24,000 bases of DNA, taken from positions 696,442 through 720,441 of the forward strand of contig NZ_OZ034688.1 in NCBI RefSeq assembly GCF_964026685.1. The letters are read 5' to 3'. How positions within the stretch are numbered: the stretch's first letter is position 1; the number at the start of each line of letters is the position of its first letter. The notes beneath the pieces were generated by a model. That model was not told the DNA's origin, ran no database searches, and saw only the letters and a program-made list of their open reading frames with translations. Shown here in pieces: positions 3,669 to 22,906 of the stretch. The DNA comes from Candidatus Providencia siddallii (GTDB lineage: Bacteria > Pseudomonadota > Gammaproteobacteria > Enterobacterales > Enterobacteriaceae). The translations under genes and the position numbers were made by a program.

Positions 3669-5207
3669 TTATTTTATATTAAGTTTTATAAAACTTAAAA
3701 ATCTAAAACCTAATATAAACAATGTAATAAAATAACTTATTCCACCAATAAAAATTACTAAAAATAAATAAAACATTCTTATTAACATACCTTTTTCATA
3801 TATAAAAGGTATACAATCTATCATAATAGATAAAACAGATCCCATAACAAATAAAGCTATTAATAATTTTAAAAAAAATATTTTCCATCCAAATAAAGGT
3901 TTATATATTTTTTGTTTTAATAATTGCCAATACAAAAGACCAGCATTAAAACATGCTGCTACACCTGTAGAAAGAGCAAGGCCAACATGTTGTAATTTTA
4001 TAACAAATATTAAATTCATCAATTGAGTTAAAATTAATGTAAAAATAGCTATTTTTACAGGAGTAACTGTATCCTGCCTAGAATAAAAACCAGGAGCTAA
4101 TATTTTAACTAAAATAATTCCTGTTAATCCTATACAATATGCAATTAAAGCATATTGCGTCATTAATGAATCATAAGCAGTAAAATTACTATATTGAAAT
4201 AATGATATAATTAATATTTTAGATAAAATAGCTAAACCTAATGCGCACGGCAAAGTTAATAATAAACATAAACGCAAACTCCAATCTATTAATTGATGAT
4301 ATTCAATTTTATTATTATTAATAAAACTTTTAGTTAATAAAGGTAATAAAATAGTACTAATCGCAACACCTAAAATACCTGAAGGTAATTCCATTAATCT
4401 ATCTGCATAATACATCCATGAAATTGAACCAGGTTGTAAAAATGAAGCAAATATTGTATTTATAATTAATGAAATTTGCGCAACAGATACCCCAATAATA
4501 GCTGGCCACATCATTTTTATAACCCTAAAAACACCTTGATTTTTAAATGAAAAACGTGGTAAAACTAACATACCAATTTTTTTAAGATAAGGTAATTGAT
4601 ATAAAAATTGTAATAAACCTCCAAATAATACTGACCATCCCAACGCTATAATTGGTGGATTAAAAAATGATGTTGCAAAAATAGAAAATACAATCATACA
4701 AATATTTAATAATGTTGGGGTAAAAGCTGGCACTAAAAAACGATTCCAAATATTAAGAATTGCACCAACAAGAGCACTTAACGAAATAAAAAAAATATAA
4801 GGAAATGTAATACGTAATAATTTTATTGTTAATTCATATTTATTTAAATATTTACTAATACCTGGCGCTGCAAGATAAATTATTCAAGGAGCACTAATAA
4901 ATCCAATAAAAGTTACAATTGAAAGAACTAAAGTTAACATTCCAGCAATATAAGAAATAAAAATACGAGTAGCTTCCTTTCCTTTTTTATTTTTATATTC
5001 AGTAAGTATTGGGATAAATGCTTGAGAAAAAGCCCCTTCAGCAAAAATTCTACGTAATAAATTAGGAAGTTTGAATGCTATAAAAAAAGCATCCGCTGCC
5101 TCCCCAGCACCAAATATTCTAGCAATTATAGCATCACGAATAAATCCAAAAATTCTAGACATTATCGTCATAAAACTAATTTTTGTTAATATTTTAAATA
5201 AATTCAT
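3669..5207 (-). CDS. murJ: Lipid II flippase MurJ (MviN), 512 aa if the single in-frame TGA at 4884-4886 is read as Trp
   Basis: ORF-track fragments 4884..5207 and 3669..4733 are in the same frame, and the stretch between them has no other stop. My translation across the junction is ...[68 protein letters not shown]... The E. coli MurJ sequence from memory is ...MLAAPWVIMVTAPGF...[39 protein letters not shown]. The N-terminus [35 protein letters not shown] also matches. Length is 512 aa versus 511 in E. coli. TAA stop. Confidence 0.9.
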
Positions 5208-5795
5208 AATTTATAATTCTAAAAATTAATATATCAAATAATAAATAGTTATTTATATTAAATAAATAAAACAAAATATTAAAAATAAAAAAAATATACT
5301 AAATATTTTTTTTAAAATTAATTAAATTAATTTTTAATAATTATATTTTCTTTAAAAAAAATAATTTTACATTTATTTTTTAAAACATAATTAATTATTA
5401 TATTTTATATTTTTGTAATTTTTACAATATTTTATTAATTAATAATATAATATATTTTTATTTAATTATTTAACTATTAAATTTTAATTCTTTTAAAAAA
5501 AATATTATAAATATAATACTATTAATAAAATAAAATTATTTAAATATATAAATAACTTTAATTTATACTATTTTAAAAAAATATAATATATTATCTATAA
5601 AAATTAAAACTTTTTAAAAAAATTACTACTTAAATTATAAATTTTGTTTATCTTTTTATTTTATATAATATTATTTATTTAATATTTTTATTAAATTAAT
5701 ACTTAACTCATATAACTAAATATTAATTGTATAAAAACTAAACATAATATATATTATAAAAATTAAATATATATTATATTTTACTTTAAATATAT

Positions 5796-5880
5796 GGTGA
5801 GATGTCCGAGAGGATGAAGGAGCACGTTTGGAAAATGTGTATACTAAAATGTATCGAGGGTTCAAATCCCTCTCTCACCG
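5796..5880 (+). tRNA. tRNA-Ser (anticodon GGA), type II with long variable arm; no encoded CCA
   Basis: The acceptor GGTGAGA pairs with TCTCACC and is followed by discriminator G. The anticodon stem is CACGT/ATGTG with loop TTGGAAA, giving anticodon GGA. The long variable arm is TATACTAAAATGTATC. The T arm is GAGGG-TTCAAAT-CCCTC. The downstream sequence is CAT, not CCA. Confidence 0.93.
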
Positions 5881-6192
5881 CATGAAATAAAATTAATTTT
5901 TTTAAAAATAAAAAAAACAAAAAATATTTTTATAAAAAATAAAATATTACAAATTATTATTAATAATATTCATTATATGTATATATTATAAATTATTATA
6001 TAAATATAAATAAAATAAACATAAATAATATTTTATTATAAAAAATTTTAATATATTAAATATTTCCTATTAAAATTATATTAACAATAAATATAATTTT
6101 ATAAAAAAATACTTTTTTACAAAATTATCTATTTTTATAAAACAAATATAAAAAATAATAGATTTTTAAAAATCTAAAAATAAAAATAAAAT

Positions 6193-7074
6193 TTAAAATA
6201 AAAAAAATAAATATAAAAATCAATTATTAATATCTATTTTAGAAAAACTTTTTACCAATTCATCTATCGCTTTTATTTGTATTAAAAAAGGTTCTAACTT
6301 ATCTAATGGTAATGCAGAAAAACCATCACATTTTGCATCATCAGGATTTGGGTGAGATTCTAAAAACAAACCAGCTAAACCAATTGCTATACCAGATCTA
6401 GCTAATTCTAATACTTGGGAACGACGACCACCAGAAACAAAAGAAAATGGTTCACGATATTGCAATGAGTGTGTTACATCAAAAATTACAGGATACCCAT
6501 TAGAAACTTTCTTCATAACATTAAAGCCTAACATATCAACTAACAAATTGTCATATCCAAAACTTGTACCACGTTCACATAAAATAATTTTATCATTACC
6601 ATTTTTAATAAATTTTTCAATAATATTTCCAATTTGATTAGGATTAATAAATTGTGGTTTTTTTATATTAACAACAACATTTGTTTTTGCTATAGATTTT
6701 ATTAAATCAGTTTGACGTGCTAAAAAAGCAGGTAATTGAATTACATCAACCACTTCAGAAACAATTTTTGCTTGTTTTGGCTCATGTATATCTGTAATAA
6801 TTTTTACATTAAACGTTTGTTTTAATTCTTGAAATATCTTTAAACTTTCTTCTAATCCTAAACCACGATAAGAATATATTGATGTTCTATTTGCTTTATC
6901 AAAAGAAGCTTTAAATACATAAAAAACATTTAATTTAAAAGTAACATTAACATAATGTTCACACACTCTCATTGCAATATCACGAGATTCAAGCACATTC
7001 ATCCCGCCAAAAAGAACAAAAGGCAAATCATTTGCTACACTAATATTACCAATATTAATTATTTTATGTTGCAT
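6193..7074 (-). CDS. kdsA: 3-deoxy-8-phosphooctulonate (KDO-8-P) synthase. Homology ends at the TGA at 6220-6222 (284 aa); the coordinates shown extend to the next TAA, assuming UGA is read through
   Basis: The 284-aa ORF is colinear with E. coli KdsA (also 284 aa, from memory). Shared segments include [69 protein letters not shown] and KCDG.SALPL.KLEPF. The frame ends on TGA. If UGA is Trp, the product gains WFYYLFFLF before the TAA at 6193-6195. Confidence 0.93.
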
Positions 7075-21158: not shown

Positions 21159-21194
21159 AATAAAATCCTAATAAAGATTATAATTATAGTTATA

Positions 21195-22082
21195 TTAATT
21201 TTTAGGTAAATAAGATAATTCATTAGAAAATGATTCTGCTAATAAATCACCAACACGTGTTATACAACCAAGATGTAAAGAATTATTAAAAAAAATTTTA
21301 TTTGGTTCAAATAAATTTATAACAGTTGATCCTAACTTAAACATACCCATTTCTTCCCCTTTTTTTAAAAATATAGAACCTTTTAAATTAAAATCTGGAT
21401 ATATAAAATGATTAATTTTATTTTTTCTATAAGAATTAACACATCCAAACCATACAGTACTTATACTACCTACAATTATAGCGCCAACTAAAATTTGAAT
21501 CATTAAACCAATATCTGTTTTAAATACACAAATTAAACGTTCATTACGTGAAAATAAATTAGGTATTTTTTTAACAGAAAATAAATTAACAGAAAATAAA
21601 TCACCGGGTACATAAATCATTTCCTTTAATAAACCATCACATGGCATATGAACACGATGATAATCACTTGGAGATAAATAAATAGTAATAAAATTTCCAT
21701 TTTTAAATTTATCAATTAAATAATGTTTTTTTACTAACAAATTATTTAAAGTATAAAAATTTTTTTTTGCTTGAAAAAGATAAATATCATTAATAGAACC
21801 AAATTGACTAATAGTGCCGTCAACAGGATATGCTACTTGATATTTTTTTGAAACAATTTTACGTGCATTCTTTTTTAAAGAACGAACAAAAAAATCATTA
21901 AATGTTGCATAATCTTTTAAATTAGTATATTTCGCTTCATTTATATTAATTTTATAAATTTTTACAAAAAACTTTATCATAAAAAAAGTTATATATTTAA
22001 TTTTTTTATTAGCAAACCATCCAAAAAATTGAGTTATCCATAATTTAATTATATATTTTGTAAATATTTTACTTTTTAACAT
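21195..22082 (-). CDS. psd: Phosphatidylserine decarboxylase proenzyme
   Basis: 295-aa ORF with the self-cleavage LGST motif (MFKLGSTVINLF) plus YHRVHMPCDG.LKEMIYVPGDLFSVN and NERLICVF..., colinear with E. coli Psd. The acidic C-terminal tail of the E. coli protein is missing. TAA stop. Confidence 0.95.
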   Translation of the reverse strand: MLKSKIFTKYIIKLWITQFFGWFANKKIKYITFFMIKFFVKIYKININEAKYTNLKDYATFNDFFVRSLKKNARKIVSKKYQVAYPVDGTISQFGSINDIYLFQAKKNFYTLNNLLVKKHYLIDKFKNGNFITIYLSPSDYHRVHMPCDGLLKEMIYVPGDLFSVNLFSVKKIPNLFSRNERLICVFKTDIGLMIQILVGAIIVGSISTVWFGCVNSYRKNKINHFIYPDFNLKGSIFLKKGEEMGMFKLGSTVINLFEPNKIFFNNSLHLGCITRVGDLLAESFSNELSYLPKN

Positions 22083-22366
22083 GTATTTTCCTTTTTTTTT
22101 ACAAAAAAATATGTTTTACTTATTTTTTACTTTTTTAATATATCTAAATAAAATTATTATATTTTATCAATTAAAAACTTTAAAAATTAAAATCAATAAT
22201 TTTTAAAATTTTATAAAAAAATAAATTAAAATTTTAATTTTTTATAATATAAAATTATTTTTTTAAAATATTAAAATTATATATTTTATATATCTATATA
22301 AAATATTTTTAATAATATTAAAATTTCATTTATGACGTTTTTTTAAAAAACATATATATATTTATT

Positions 22367-22906
22367 ATGAAAAAAAACAATAATTTAATTTGGATTGATC
22401 TTGAAATGACAGGTCTTCATCCAATTCGTAATCGTATTATTGAAATAGCAACTATTATAACTGACAAAAATATTAATATTTTAGCAAAAGGACCTGTTAT
22501 TCCAATTTATCAAACAGAAAAACAACTTAATTTAATGGACAAATGGAATATCACAACACATGTTACTCATGGTTTAATAGAACGTGTTAGAAAAAGTTCT
22601 TTTAACGAACGAGATGCTGAACTAATAACAATTAATTTTTTAAAACAATGGGTTAAAAAAGGAAGCTCTCCTATCTGTGGTAATACCATTGGGTTAGATA
22701 GACAATTTTTATTTAATTATATGCCTGAACTAGAAAACTTTTTTCATTATCGCTATATTGATGTTAGTACAATAAAAGAATTAGCTTTACGTTGAAAACC
22801 ATCGATTTTAAATAAATTTACTAAAAAAAATACACATCAAGCTTCAAACGATATTATAGAATCTATAAATGAATTATTATTTTATAAAAAATATTTTTTT
22901 AAATAA
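22367..22906 (+). CDS. orn: Oligoribonuclease, 179 aa if the in-frame TGA at 22793-22795 is read as Trp
   Basis: The track ORF ends ...[18 protein letters not shown]. The same frame continues [40 protein letters not shown]. coli Orn from memory reads ...[43 protein letters not shown]... The DEDDh motifs are WIDLEMTGL (Exo I) and H-x4-D ([11 protein letters not shown], Exo III); the latter lies after the TGA. Length is 179 aa versus 181 in E. coli. Confidence 0.9.

Follow-up and report, generated by a model that had tools for sequence, protein, structure and literature searches.

Results

TGA codons in the window

The window, by which we mean the whole analysed stretch of 24 kb, holds 16 protein genes, and in none of the 16 did we find an internal TAA or TAG or a frameshift. 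With frames opened using TAA and TAG as the sole stops, three of the 16 genes, murJ, ispE and orn, are uninterrupted frames with one internal TGA apiece (Table 1), followed by 404, 25 and 36 further codons and set in the local sequences CCT TGA ATA, ACA TGA ATA and CGT TGA AAA, respectively. The open reading frame list made with table 11 breaks all three genes into pieces. The single TGA per gene, the lack of any other lesion, the tail lengths and the fragmentation by table-11 calls had all been described in the original prediction and were reproduced here. Its inventory of TGAs holds for the three sense sites but overlooked two TGAs at the ancestral stops of kdsA and lolB. In murJ, 79% of the protein is encoded past the TGA, and in orn the ExoIII His/Asp motif THQASND lies 3' of it, with the catalytic residues there conserved.

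Table 1. Genes of the window with TGA codons or a role in release, with the three bases that follow each TGA
Gene	Product	Position	Strand	Codons	TGA	Next bases	Remarks
murJ	lipid II flippase	3669-5207	-	512	4886-4884 (codon 108)	ATA	
kdsA		6193-7074	-		6222-6220 (codon 285)	TTT	TGA at ancestral stop
prmC	release-factor glutamine methyltransferase	7335-8165	-				intact, TGA-free
prfA	RF1	8165-9244	-				intact, TGA-free; ordinary PxT motif PET
ispE	CDP-ME kinase	12432-13295	-	287	12512-12510 (codon 262)	ATA	
lolB		13262-13921	-		13294-13292	TTC	TGA at ancestral stop
orn	oligoribonuclease	22367-22906	+	179	22793-22795 (codon 143)	AAA	

Read as Trp, the kdsA TGA would add the tail WFLYLFFLF up to a TAA at 6195-6193. 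E. coli KdsA has 284 amino acids, and residues 1-282 of the two proteins align to each other; at the stop position the sister strain PSOF has TAA and Ca. Hartigia has TGA. The lolB TGA, if likewise read as Trp, would add WFWHGHLLAN before a TAA, with a second TGA (13288-13286) inside this tail. The lolB stop-position TGA overlaps the ispE ATG (13295-13293) as ATGA and is retained because mutating it would destroy that start codon.

RF1 is, as originally predicted, the sole release factor in the window, but this is uninformative because prfB is located elsewhere in enterobacterial genomes. The best match of this RF1 in the genome contigs scanned is that of Ca. Hartigia (67% identical). Its PET motif was considered as an oddity and rejected, since it is common (28 of 81 RF1 loci). 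The only tRNA genes in the window are those for Ser, Leu, Cys and Gly.

Source genome and published case

Translated with table 4, MurJ is 100% identical to the NCBI MurJ of Ca. Providencia siddallii, and Orn (CAL1329524.1), IspE (CAL1329518.1/WP_341764973.1), LolB, KdsA, PrfA and Psd are exact NCBI matches on the same contig, which makes seven proteins in all. On the strength of these matches the window is established as chromosomal DNA of Candidatus Providencia siddallii PSAC, a symbiont of the leech Haementeria acuecueyetzin. PSAC, a bacteriome symbiont with a genome of 756 kbp and 22.0% G+C, was described by Manzano-Marin, Kvist & Oceguera-Figueroa 2023, Genome Biol Evol 15:evad164 (PMC10540940). 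UGA to Trp in PSAC is thus already published, and public records already use table 4.

In that study, in-frame UGA was found in 125 of 610 CDSs, among them eight aminoacyl-tRNA ligases; the trnW anticodon is unchanged (CCA), and prfB is kept and otherwise intact but itself carries an in-frame UGA, so that it is a pseudogene under table 11 (PMC10540940). Nine genes, including kdsA and rpsK, may yet stop at UGA and would give longer products if UGA never terminates (PMC10540940). The authors described code 4 in PSAC as an 'intermediate stage', with UGG>UGA in essential genes, and as a likely early stage of stop-to-sense reassignment, the first to be reported; in their model prfB is hit first, rather than the tRNA anticodon being changed (PMC10540940). 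The main text does not name murJ or orn, names ispE for strain PSLP only and does not give lolB among the UGA-ending genes (PMC10540940).

The original prediction, that UGA is Trp in a young or partial reassignment, is supported and agrees with the published 'intermediate stage' (PMC10540940). It had listed Mollicutes, Hodgkinia, Zinderia, Nasuia and Stammera as known cases and made no choice among them; the organism is none of these but a fifth, already described case. Absence of prfB had been the expected sign, whereas the genome keeps a prfB interrupted by an in-frame UGA, and trnW has a CCA anticodon (PMC10540940). An intact prfB together with TGA only at gene ends had been named as contrary evidence, and the 125 genes with internal UGA do not show this pattern (PMC10540940).

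Conservation of Trp and selection past the TGA codons

The predicted position of the TGAs on conserved Trp residues was borne out. Solved homologues have W opposite the TGA in MurJ (AAPWIIY), IspE (APEWLNG) and Orn (ARRWKPE), and among the best 120 matches listed for each protein the TGA column is W in 116 of 120 MurJ and in 120 of 120 Orn homologues. Opposite the murJ and ispE TGA codons PSOF carries TGG, and an orn orthologue of PSOF was absent among the best 120 Orn matches listed. Judged by this alignment of the sister strains, the murJ and ispE TGA codons are shown to derive from TGG. UGA hence lies at conserved Trp sites inside intact, essential genes (n = 3), as is the case under code 4.

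The three genes might instead be recent pseudogenes or encode truncated proteins, with UGA an ordinary stop and TGG>TGA the easiest nonsense change in an AT-biased genome. TGG>TGA is indeed a bias-favoured G>A transition, such mutations necessarily align with Trp, further decay is not to be expected so soon after a very recent knockout, and the ispE and orn tails are short. However, all three lesions are of one type among many nonsense paths and there are no indels. Three random nonsense mutations would all be TGG>TGA with a probability of 1e-5 in a uniform model, or of 7e-3 if only GC>AT transitions are allowed, and chance nonsense mutation is therefore an unlikely source of the three TGAs. 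The mixture of indels, TAA or TAG codons and relaxed downstream constraint that marks a pseudogene was not seen in murJ, ispE or orn. Shuffled murJ tails stay open for 15 codons on average and never for 404, in line with the earlier argument that a tail of this length points to selection. Relaxed selection past the murJ TGA had been named as evidence to the contrary, but the MurJ tail is not more diverged than in PSOF: its identity to free-living Providencia is 68.9% in PSAC and 71.4% for the intact PSOF copy, with synonymous sites being saturated between the two strains. In a homology-guided count, interior TGA was absent from the murJ, ispE and orn orthologues in the Wigglesworthia, Ca. Makana and Ca. 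Hartigia loci that served as control symbionts. A cruder tally of interior TGAs over long TAA/TAG-delimited frames was swamped by spurious antisense frames and was replaced by this count. Given also that these are essential or core genes, with most of MurJ and the catalytic His/Asp of Orn lying past the TGA, and that the genome-wide UGA genes include aminoacyl-tRNA ligases (PMC10540940), we regard loss of function as very improbable.

Even less probable, in our view, is that the TGAs are not decoded as such, owing to a sequencing or assembly error, to A-to-I editing of the mRNA or to selenocysteine. Direct evidence was seen for none of the three. Against an error, the window is identical to the deposited assembly, which is manually curated and circular, with contigs at a coverage of at least 20x. 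Editing would turn UGA into UGI, which is read like UGG and would give back a Trp codon, but the UACG loop motif is missing at all three sites; this motif is the one used by the bacterial editing enzyme TadA. Selenocysteine is hard to reconcile with the alignments, where every homologue aligned across the three sites has Trp and never Cys or Sec.

TGA is not a neutral synonym for TGG

The window contains 65 TGG and 3 TGA codons for Trp, in accordance with the roughly 65 to 3 counted by hand beforehand. In A+T-rich members with the classical code 4, TGA is the main Trp codon, as opposed to 3 of 68 here. In other purine-ending codon pairs of the window the G-ending form makes up only 5-15%. Comparing PSOF with PSAC, we counted G>A in 80 of 90 synonymous cases versus TGG>TGA in 2 of 38 Trp cases (Fisher p = 3e-20). 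TGA is far from being a neutral synonym for TGG. The same avoidance would also be expected if RF2 were dead and the CCA tRNA slow on UGA.

The base 3' of UGA

All three sense TGAs in the window are followed by A (baseline 35%, P = 0.044), the base that promotes read-through after UGA in E. coli (PMC10540940), and both stop-position TGAs, in kdsA and lolB, are followed by T. In PSOF, znuB has a TGA at W9 with A as the next base, and a stop-position TGA in znuA is also followed by A, counter to the pattern; the sample is small, with five codons from the window and four from PSOF. It is a tentative and rather doubtful idea that the 3' neighbour might decide the meaning of UGA in PSAC, with A favouring Trp and a pyrimidine favouring a stop via scarce RF2. 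If true, a bacterium would have a codon of dual use whose meaning depends on context. Residual UGA stops are proposed in the 2023 paper, which also mentions a run of A past the prfB UGA but reports no test of such a rule across the genome (PMC10540940).

Discussion

We consider it probable, from the sequence and the published evidence, that UGA in murJ, ispE and orn is read as Trp, that this reassignment would be incomplete, and that it would work through near-cognate reading by the CCA tRNA with RF2 being scarce. UGG would have changed to UGA by G>A inside the three genes, and translation of UGA as Trp would yield full-length MurJ, IspE and Orn. As the likely mechanism, the unchanged tRNA-Trp(CCA) would read UGA as a near-cognate codon, tolerating a C-A mismatch at its third base. 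RF2 would be scarce because prfB has an in-frame UGA, so that its own synthesis would need read-through, and Trp reading might then win over termination; an A immediately 3' would aid this reading. Incompleteness would be reflected in the strong avoidance of UGA for Trp and possibly in termination at a few ancestral stops, such as that of kdsA. For PSAC we infer the decoding mechanism and residual UGA termination, and likewise Trp insertion at UGA and its efficiency.

It is also possible, though we think it rather unlikely, that the reassignment is already complete: functional RF2 would be gone, every UGA would be Trp, KdsA and LolB would carry tails, and TGA would be rare since the change is recent or the CCA tRNA is slow. 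The public annotation partly points this way, with LolB given as a 219-aa read-through product and KdsA as 293 aa in RefSeq; read with table 11, prfB counts as a pseudogene (PMC10540940). The submitters, by contrast, end KdsA at the TGA (284 aa), which gives this protein two forms in NCBI. Under code 4 no genes would end at UGA; kdsA and lolB carry TGA exactly at the ancestral stop, where it may either terminate or be read through. The tails of 9 and 10 residues are short, in favour of a complete reassignment. The kdsA TGA has not turned into TAA despite the favoured G>A change seen in PSOF, which argues against completeness, as does the different next base of stop-position and sense TGAs. The lolB TGA could not move without loss of the ispE ATG, and its retention is uninformative on termination. 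As lolB is locked by this overlap and kdsA is a single site, neither proves residual termination. Complete reassignment would furthermore give extensions to nine genes including rpsK, and prfB is otherwise intact (PMC10540940). We therefore favour an incomplete reassignment.

The window brings no new biology. Our additions to the published case, namely the probabilities for chance mutation, the non-neutrality of TGA, the 3' base pattern and the locked lolB stop, are all small points. On the practical side, the window serves as a check: the original prediction recovered a real code change from 24 kb of raw sequence alone. Gene callers using table 11 will fragment such genes.

Compared with known systems, PSAC as published is the same genome and the same phenomenon as the window, with kdsA named there as a possible remaining UGA stop (PMC10540940). 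Wild-type tRNA-Trp(CCA) of E. coli inserts Trp at UGA, favoured by a 3' A (Engelberg-Kulka 1981; Kopelowitz et al. 1992, both as cited in PMC10540940), and a 3' A is found at all three sense TGAs here. In E. coli, however, leaky UGA is a low-level error with full RF2, whereas in PSAC essential genes would depend on read-through. Blastocrithidia differs from PSAC in being a eukaryote with another mechanism, and for PSAC dual use is no more than hypothetical. The Blastocrithidia mechanism combines a shortened anticodon stem of tRNA-Trp with a change in eRF1. UGA is both Trp and a genuine stop there, a parallel drawn by the PSAC paper (PMC10540940). In Ca. Hodgkinia cicadicola, Ca. Nasuia deltocephalinicola and Mollicutes the UGA stop has likewise become Trp, but unlike in PSAC the trnW anticodon is UCA and prfB is lost (PMC10540940). 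Ca. Stammera capleta, like PSAC a gammaproteobacterium, and Ca. Zinderia insecticola are A+T-rich obligate symbionts where UGA is Trp with a trnW CCA anticodon (PMC10540940). Their genomes are far smaller than that of PSAC. In both, prfB has been lost, and UGA occurs in 59-62% of genes as compared with 20% in PSAC (PMC10540940). With UGA within a fifth of its genes and with prfB and an unchanged tRNA-Trp both kept, PSAC makes the order of events in a code change directly observable.

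Results

The sequence strongly supports decoding of in-frame UGA as Trp in PSAC, the symbiont of the leech Haementeria acuecueyetzin. With TAA and TAG as the sole stops, murJ, ispE and orn were each traced as a single frame with one in-frame TGA, as the original prediction had held, and neither an internal TAA or TAG nor a frame shift was found in any of the 16 window genes. Our recount of Trp codons in the window (65 TGG, 3 sense TGA, i.e. TGA inside a gene) was identical to the earlier hand count. The TGAs had been proposed to fall on conserved Trp residues, and each indeed lies opposite a Trp of a solved homologue (MurJ, AAPWIIY; IspE, APEWLNG; Orn, ARRWKPE). 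The respective column holds W in 116 of the best 120 database homologues of MurJ and in 120 of the best 120 of Orn. Regions named as required also lie past the TGA, namely 79% of MurJ and the ExoIII His/Asp motif of Orn. Error, editing or selenocysteine is not a serious alternative.

Coordinates of the features discussed (positions marked L081 belong to the syntenic locus of the sister strain PSOF)
Feature	Position	Strand	Codons in frame	Codons after TGA	Sequence
murJ sense TGA	4886-4884		512	404	TGA-ATA (4881-4886)
ispE sense TGA	12512-12510		287	25	TGA-ATA (12507-12512)
orn sense TGA	22793-22795		179	36	TGA-AAA (22793-22798)
kdsA stop-position TGA	6222-6220	-			then T (6217-6222)
kdsA read-through tail	6193-6222	-			WFLYLFFLF
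lolB stop-position TGA	13294-13292	-			then T (13289-13294)
lolB second TGA	13288-13286
ispE ATG	13295-13293	-			ATGA with lolB TGA
tRNA-Ser(GGA)	5796-5881	+
mscM	17829-21158	-	1109
Spacer	13922-14664
Spacer	17065-17828
Spacer	23090-24000
PSOF znuB TGA	L081 16506-16508	-			IPG-TGA-ITG
PSOF znuA end	L081 18289-18297	+			TGA ATA TAA

The window has a G+C content of ~21% and carries four tRNAs besides its protein genes, which are aspS (partial), argS, murJ, kdsA, prmC, prfA, ychF, pth, prs, ispE, lolB, fabV, pgsA, mscM, psd and orn. Identities were taken from solved-structure matches, NCBIfam, exact matches to named NCBI proteins and the Pfam labels of the genes at the syntenic locus of the sister strain. 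The long channel gene scored 1586 bits against the MscM profile (cut-off 809); MscK was rejected at 558 bits, under its cut-off of 991. The longest-ORF start of mscM is GTG, and those of prs (GTG) and fabV (TTG) are not ATG either. The tRNA-Ser(GGA) was matched by ARAGORN, but Rfam at gathering threshold did not report it when run on the whole window. A search confined to its region gives 51 bits, which makes the miss a filter artefact and not a sign of a degenerate tRNA. Three long spacers are free of ORFs, have a local G+C of ~14-18% (2-kb windows) and may be remnants of decayed genes. In the final 900 bases of the window every ORF has at most 43 codons, and between lolB and fabV the spacer measures 743 bp, roughly double the 367 bp of PSOF.

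Could the interrupted genes be pseudogenes? When the murJ tail was shuffled 5000 times, the mean run without TAA or TAG was 15 codons and no trial stayed open for 404; calculated from composition, the probability of the open tail is 3e-12. This excludes an old pseudogene, and only that, and for this reason the possibility that murJ, ispE and orn are recent pseudogenes was tested on its own by enumerating every single-base change that would create a stop in any of the 16 genes. The share of TGG>TGA among these changes is 2% in a uniform model, rises to 9% with a biased spectrum and reaches 19% when GC>AT transitions are the sole changes allowed. Three of three nonsense changes being TGG>TGA therefore has a P of 1e-5 to 7e-3, the absence of indels not yet counted. 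The post-TGA tail of MurJ is 68.9% identical to MurJ of free-living Providencia, compared with 71.4% for the uninterrupted PSOF copy, and the sequence gives no sign of relaxed constraint there. Recent pseudogenes are not a serious alternative. As a control, orthologues of these genes from the Wigglesworthia, Ca. Makana argininalis and Ca. Hartigia pinicola loci were searched and contained no interior TGA. Among the compared loci, the RF1 PxT motif has F or C as x in Ca. Makana argininalis (~277 kb genomes) and a related MAG (L009, L011, L012, L018, L046); elsewhere x is E, D, A, S, V, T, Q or K. In the same L-numbered loci, prfA, prmC and ychF showed no interior TGA.

The original prediction was right about the three sense TGAs but missed two TGAs at the ancestral ends of kdsA and lolB. 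The kdsA TGA has the same end position as E. coli KdsA (284 aa) and PSOF KdsA. PSOF has TAA there and Ca. Hartigia TGA, and the TGA is therefore probably ancestral. Read-through would append a hydrophobic tail. The lolB TGA lies one codon beyond the E. coli LolB C-terminus, with TGA in PSOF and Hartigia too. It shares bases with the ispE start codon and is mutationally locked, because a change to TAA would abolish that ATG. Here read-through would append WFWHGHLLAN, a tail that includes the second TGA, and the C-terminus would change from ...WVLKK, which ends at the TGA, to ...KKWFWHGHLLAN.

For comparison with the sister strain we used the PSOF locus (GCA_001457715.1), which takes in 12 window genes. 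PSOF has TGG at MurJ W108 and IspE W264, hence the murJ and ispE TGAs of PSAC are derived. Of 90 aligned, conserved purine-ending two-fold codons with G in PSOF, 80 end in A in PSAC, so synonymous sites are saturated. In contrast, only 2 of 38 conserved Trp codons are TGA in PSAC (Fisher p = 3e-20), and within the window TGG makes up 96% of Trp codons against 5-15% G-ending codons in other purine-ending pairs. UGA is thus by no means neutrally exchangeable with UGG. It has either been readable for just the final, short stretch of the lineage or is still costly.

The base after the TGA differs between the two groups. Each of the three sense TGAs has A as its next base (P = 0.044, given that A follows 35% of TGG codons), and each of the two stop-position TGAs has T. 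In PSOF, znuB has a TGA at conserved Trp 9, again followed by A, in line with what Table 3 of PMC10540940 implies. In PSOF lolB the base after the stop TGA is C, and PSOF znuA ends in a TGA stop with a TAA back-up one codon on.

Discussion

Decoding of UGA as Trp in this genome has already been described, and the case is not new. In the 756 kbp PSAC genome (22.0% G+C; PMC10540940), 125 of 610 CDSs contain in-frame UGA, mostly via UGG>UGA (Manzano-Marin et al. 2023, PMC10540940). Public annotation already uses table 4 (UGA = Trp). Our table-4 MurJ matches NCBI MurJ of Candidatus Providencia siddallii with 100% identity across 512 residues, and full-length Orn (179 aa), IspE (287 aa), PrfA and Psd have exact-sequence NCBI matches from Ca. 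P. siddallii on the same contig. Exact-sequence NCBI look-up did not find truncated Orn or IspE forms of table 11 (UGA = stop).

The only serious alternative is that reassignment is complete and the kdsA and lolB products are merely tailed, which sequence alone cannot tell from an intermediate state. The NCBI record of LolB is the 219 aa read-through form (exact-sequence look-up). KdsA exists in two NCBI forms, the submitters' 284 aa ending at the TGA and 293 aa in RefSeq with TGA as W. At least nine genes, including kdsA, possibly retain UGA stops in PSAC; lolB is not listed among them (PMC10540940). Nine genes each in PSOF and PSLP, another sister strain, seemingly depend on UGA read-through (PMC10540940). 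The authors regard the change as lineage-specific and likely an intermediate stage between codes 11 and 4 (PMC10540940), which matches and supports the 'young or partial' reassignment originally predicted. Absence of prfB had also been expected; as published, prfB is retained with an in-frame UGA of its own, and trnW keeps its CCA anticodon (PMC10540940). As trigger the authors propose UGG>UGA in prfB, aided by the known effect of a 3' A on tRNA-Trp read-through (PMC10540940).

The best-supported account would have five steps. We infer its tRNA mechanism, as well as any residual termination, and take the state of prfB and trnW from PMC10540940. G>A pressure would turn UGG into UGA, which tRNA-Trp(CCA) might read via a third-position C-A mismatch. 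Such reading would succeed as RF2 would be scarce, prfB itself needing UGA read-through in a self-limiting loop. An A 3' of UGA would aid read-through, and UGA would still be costly and hence still rare.

In conclusion, the original prediction was a correct reading of a real, unusual feature, and what is left of interest is a putative rule that the following base sets Trp versus stop. The five TGAs of the window suggest such a rule. They are too few to prove it, but the pattern agrees with the context effect in E. coli to which PMC10540940 refers.
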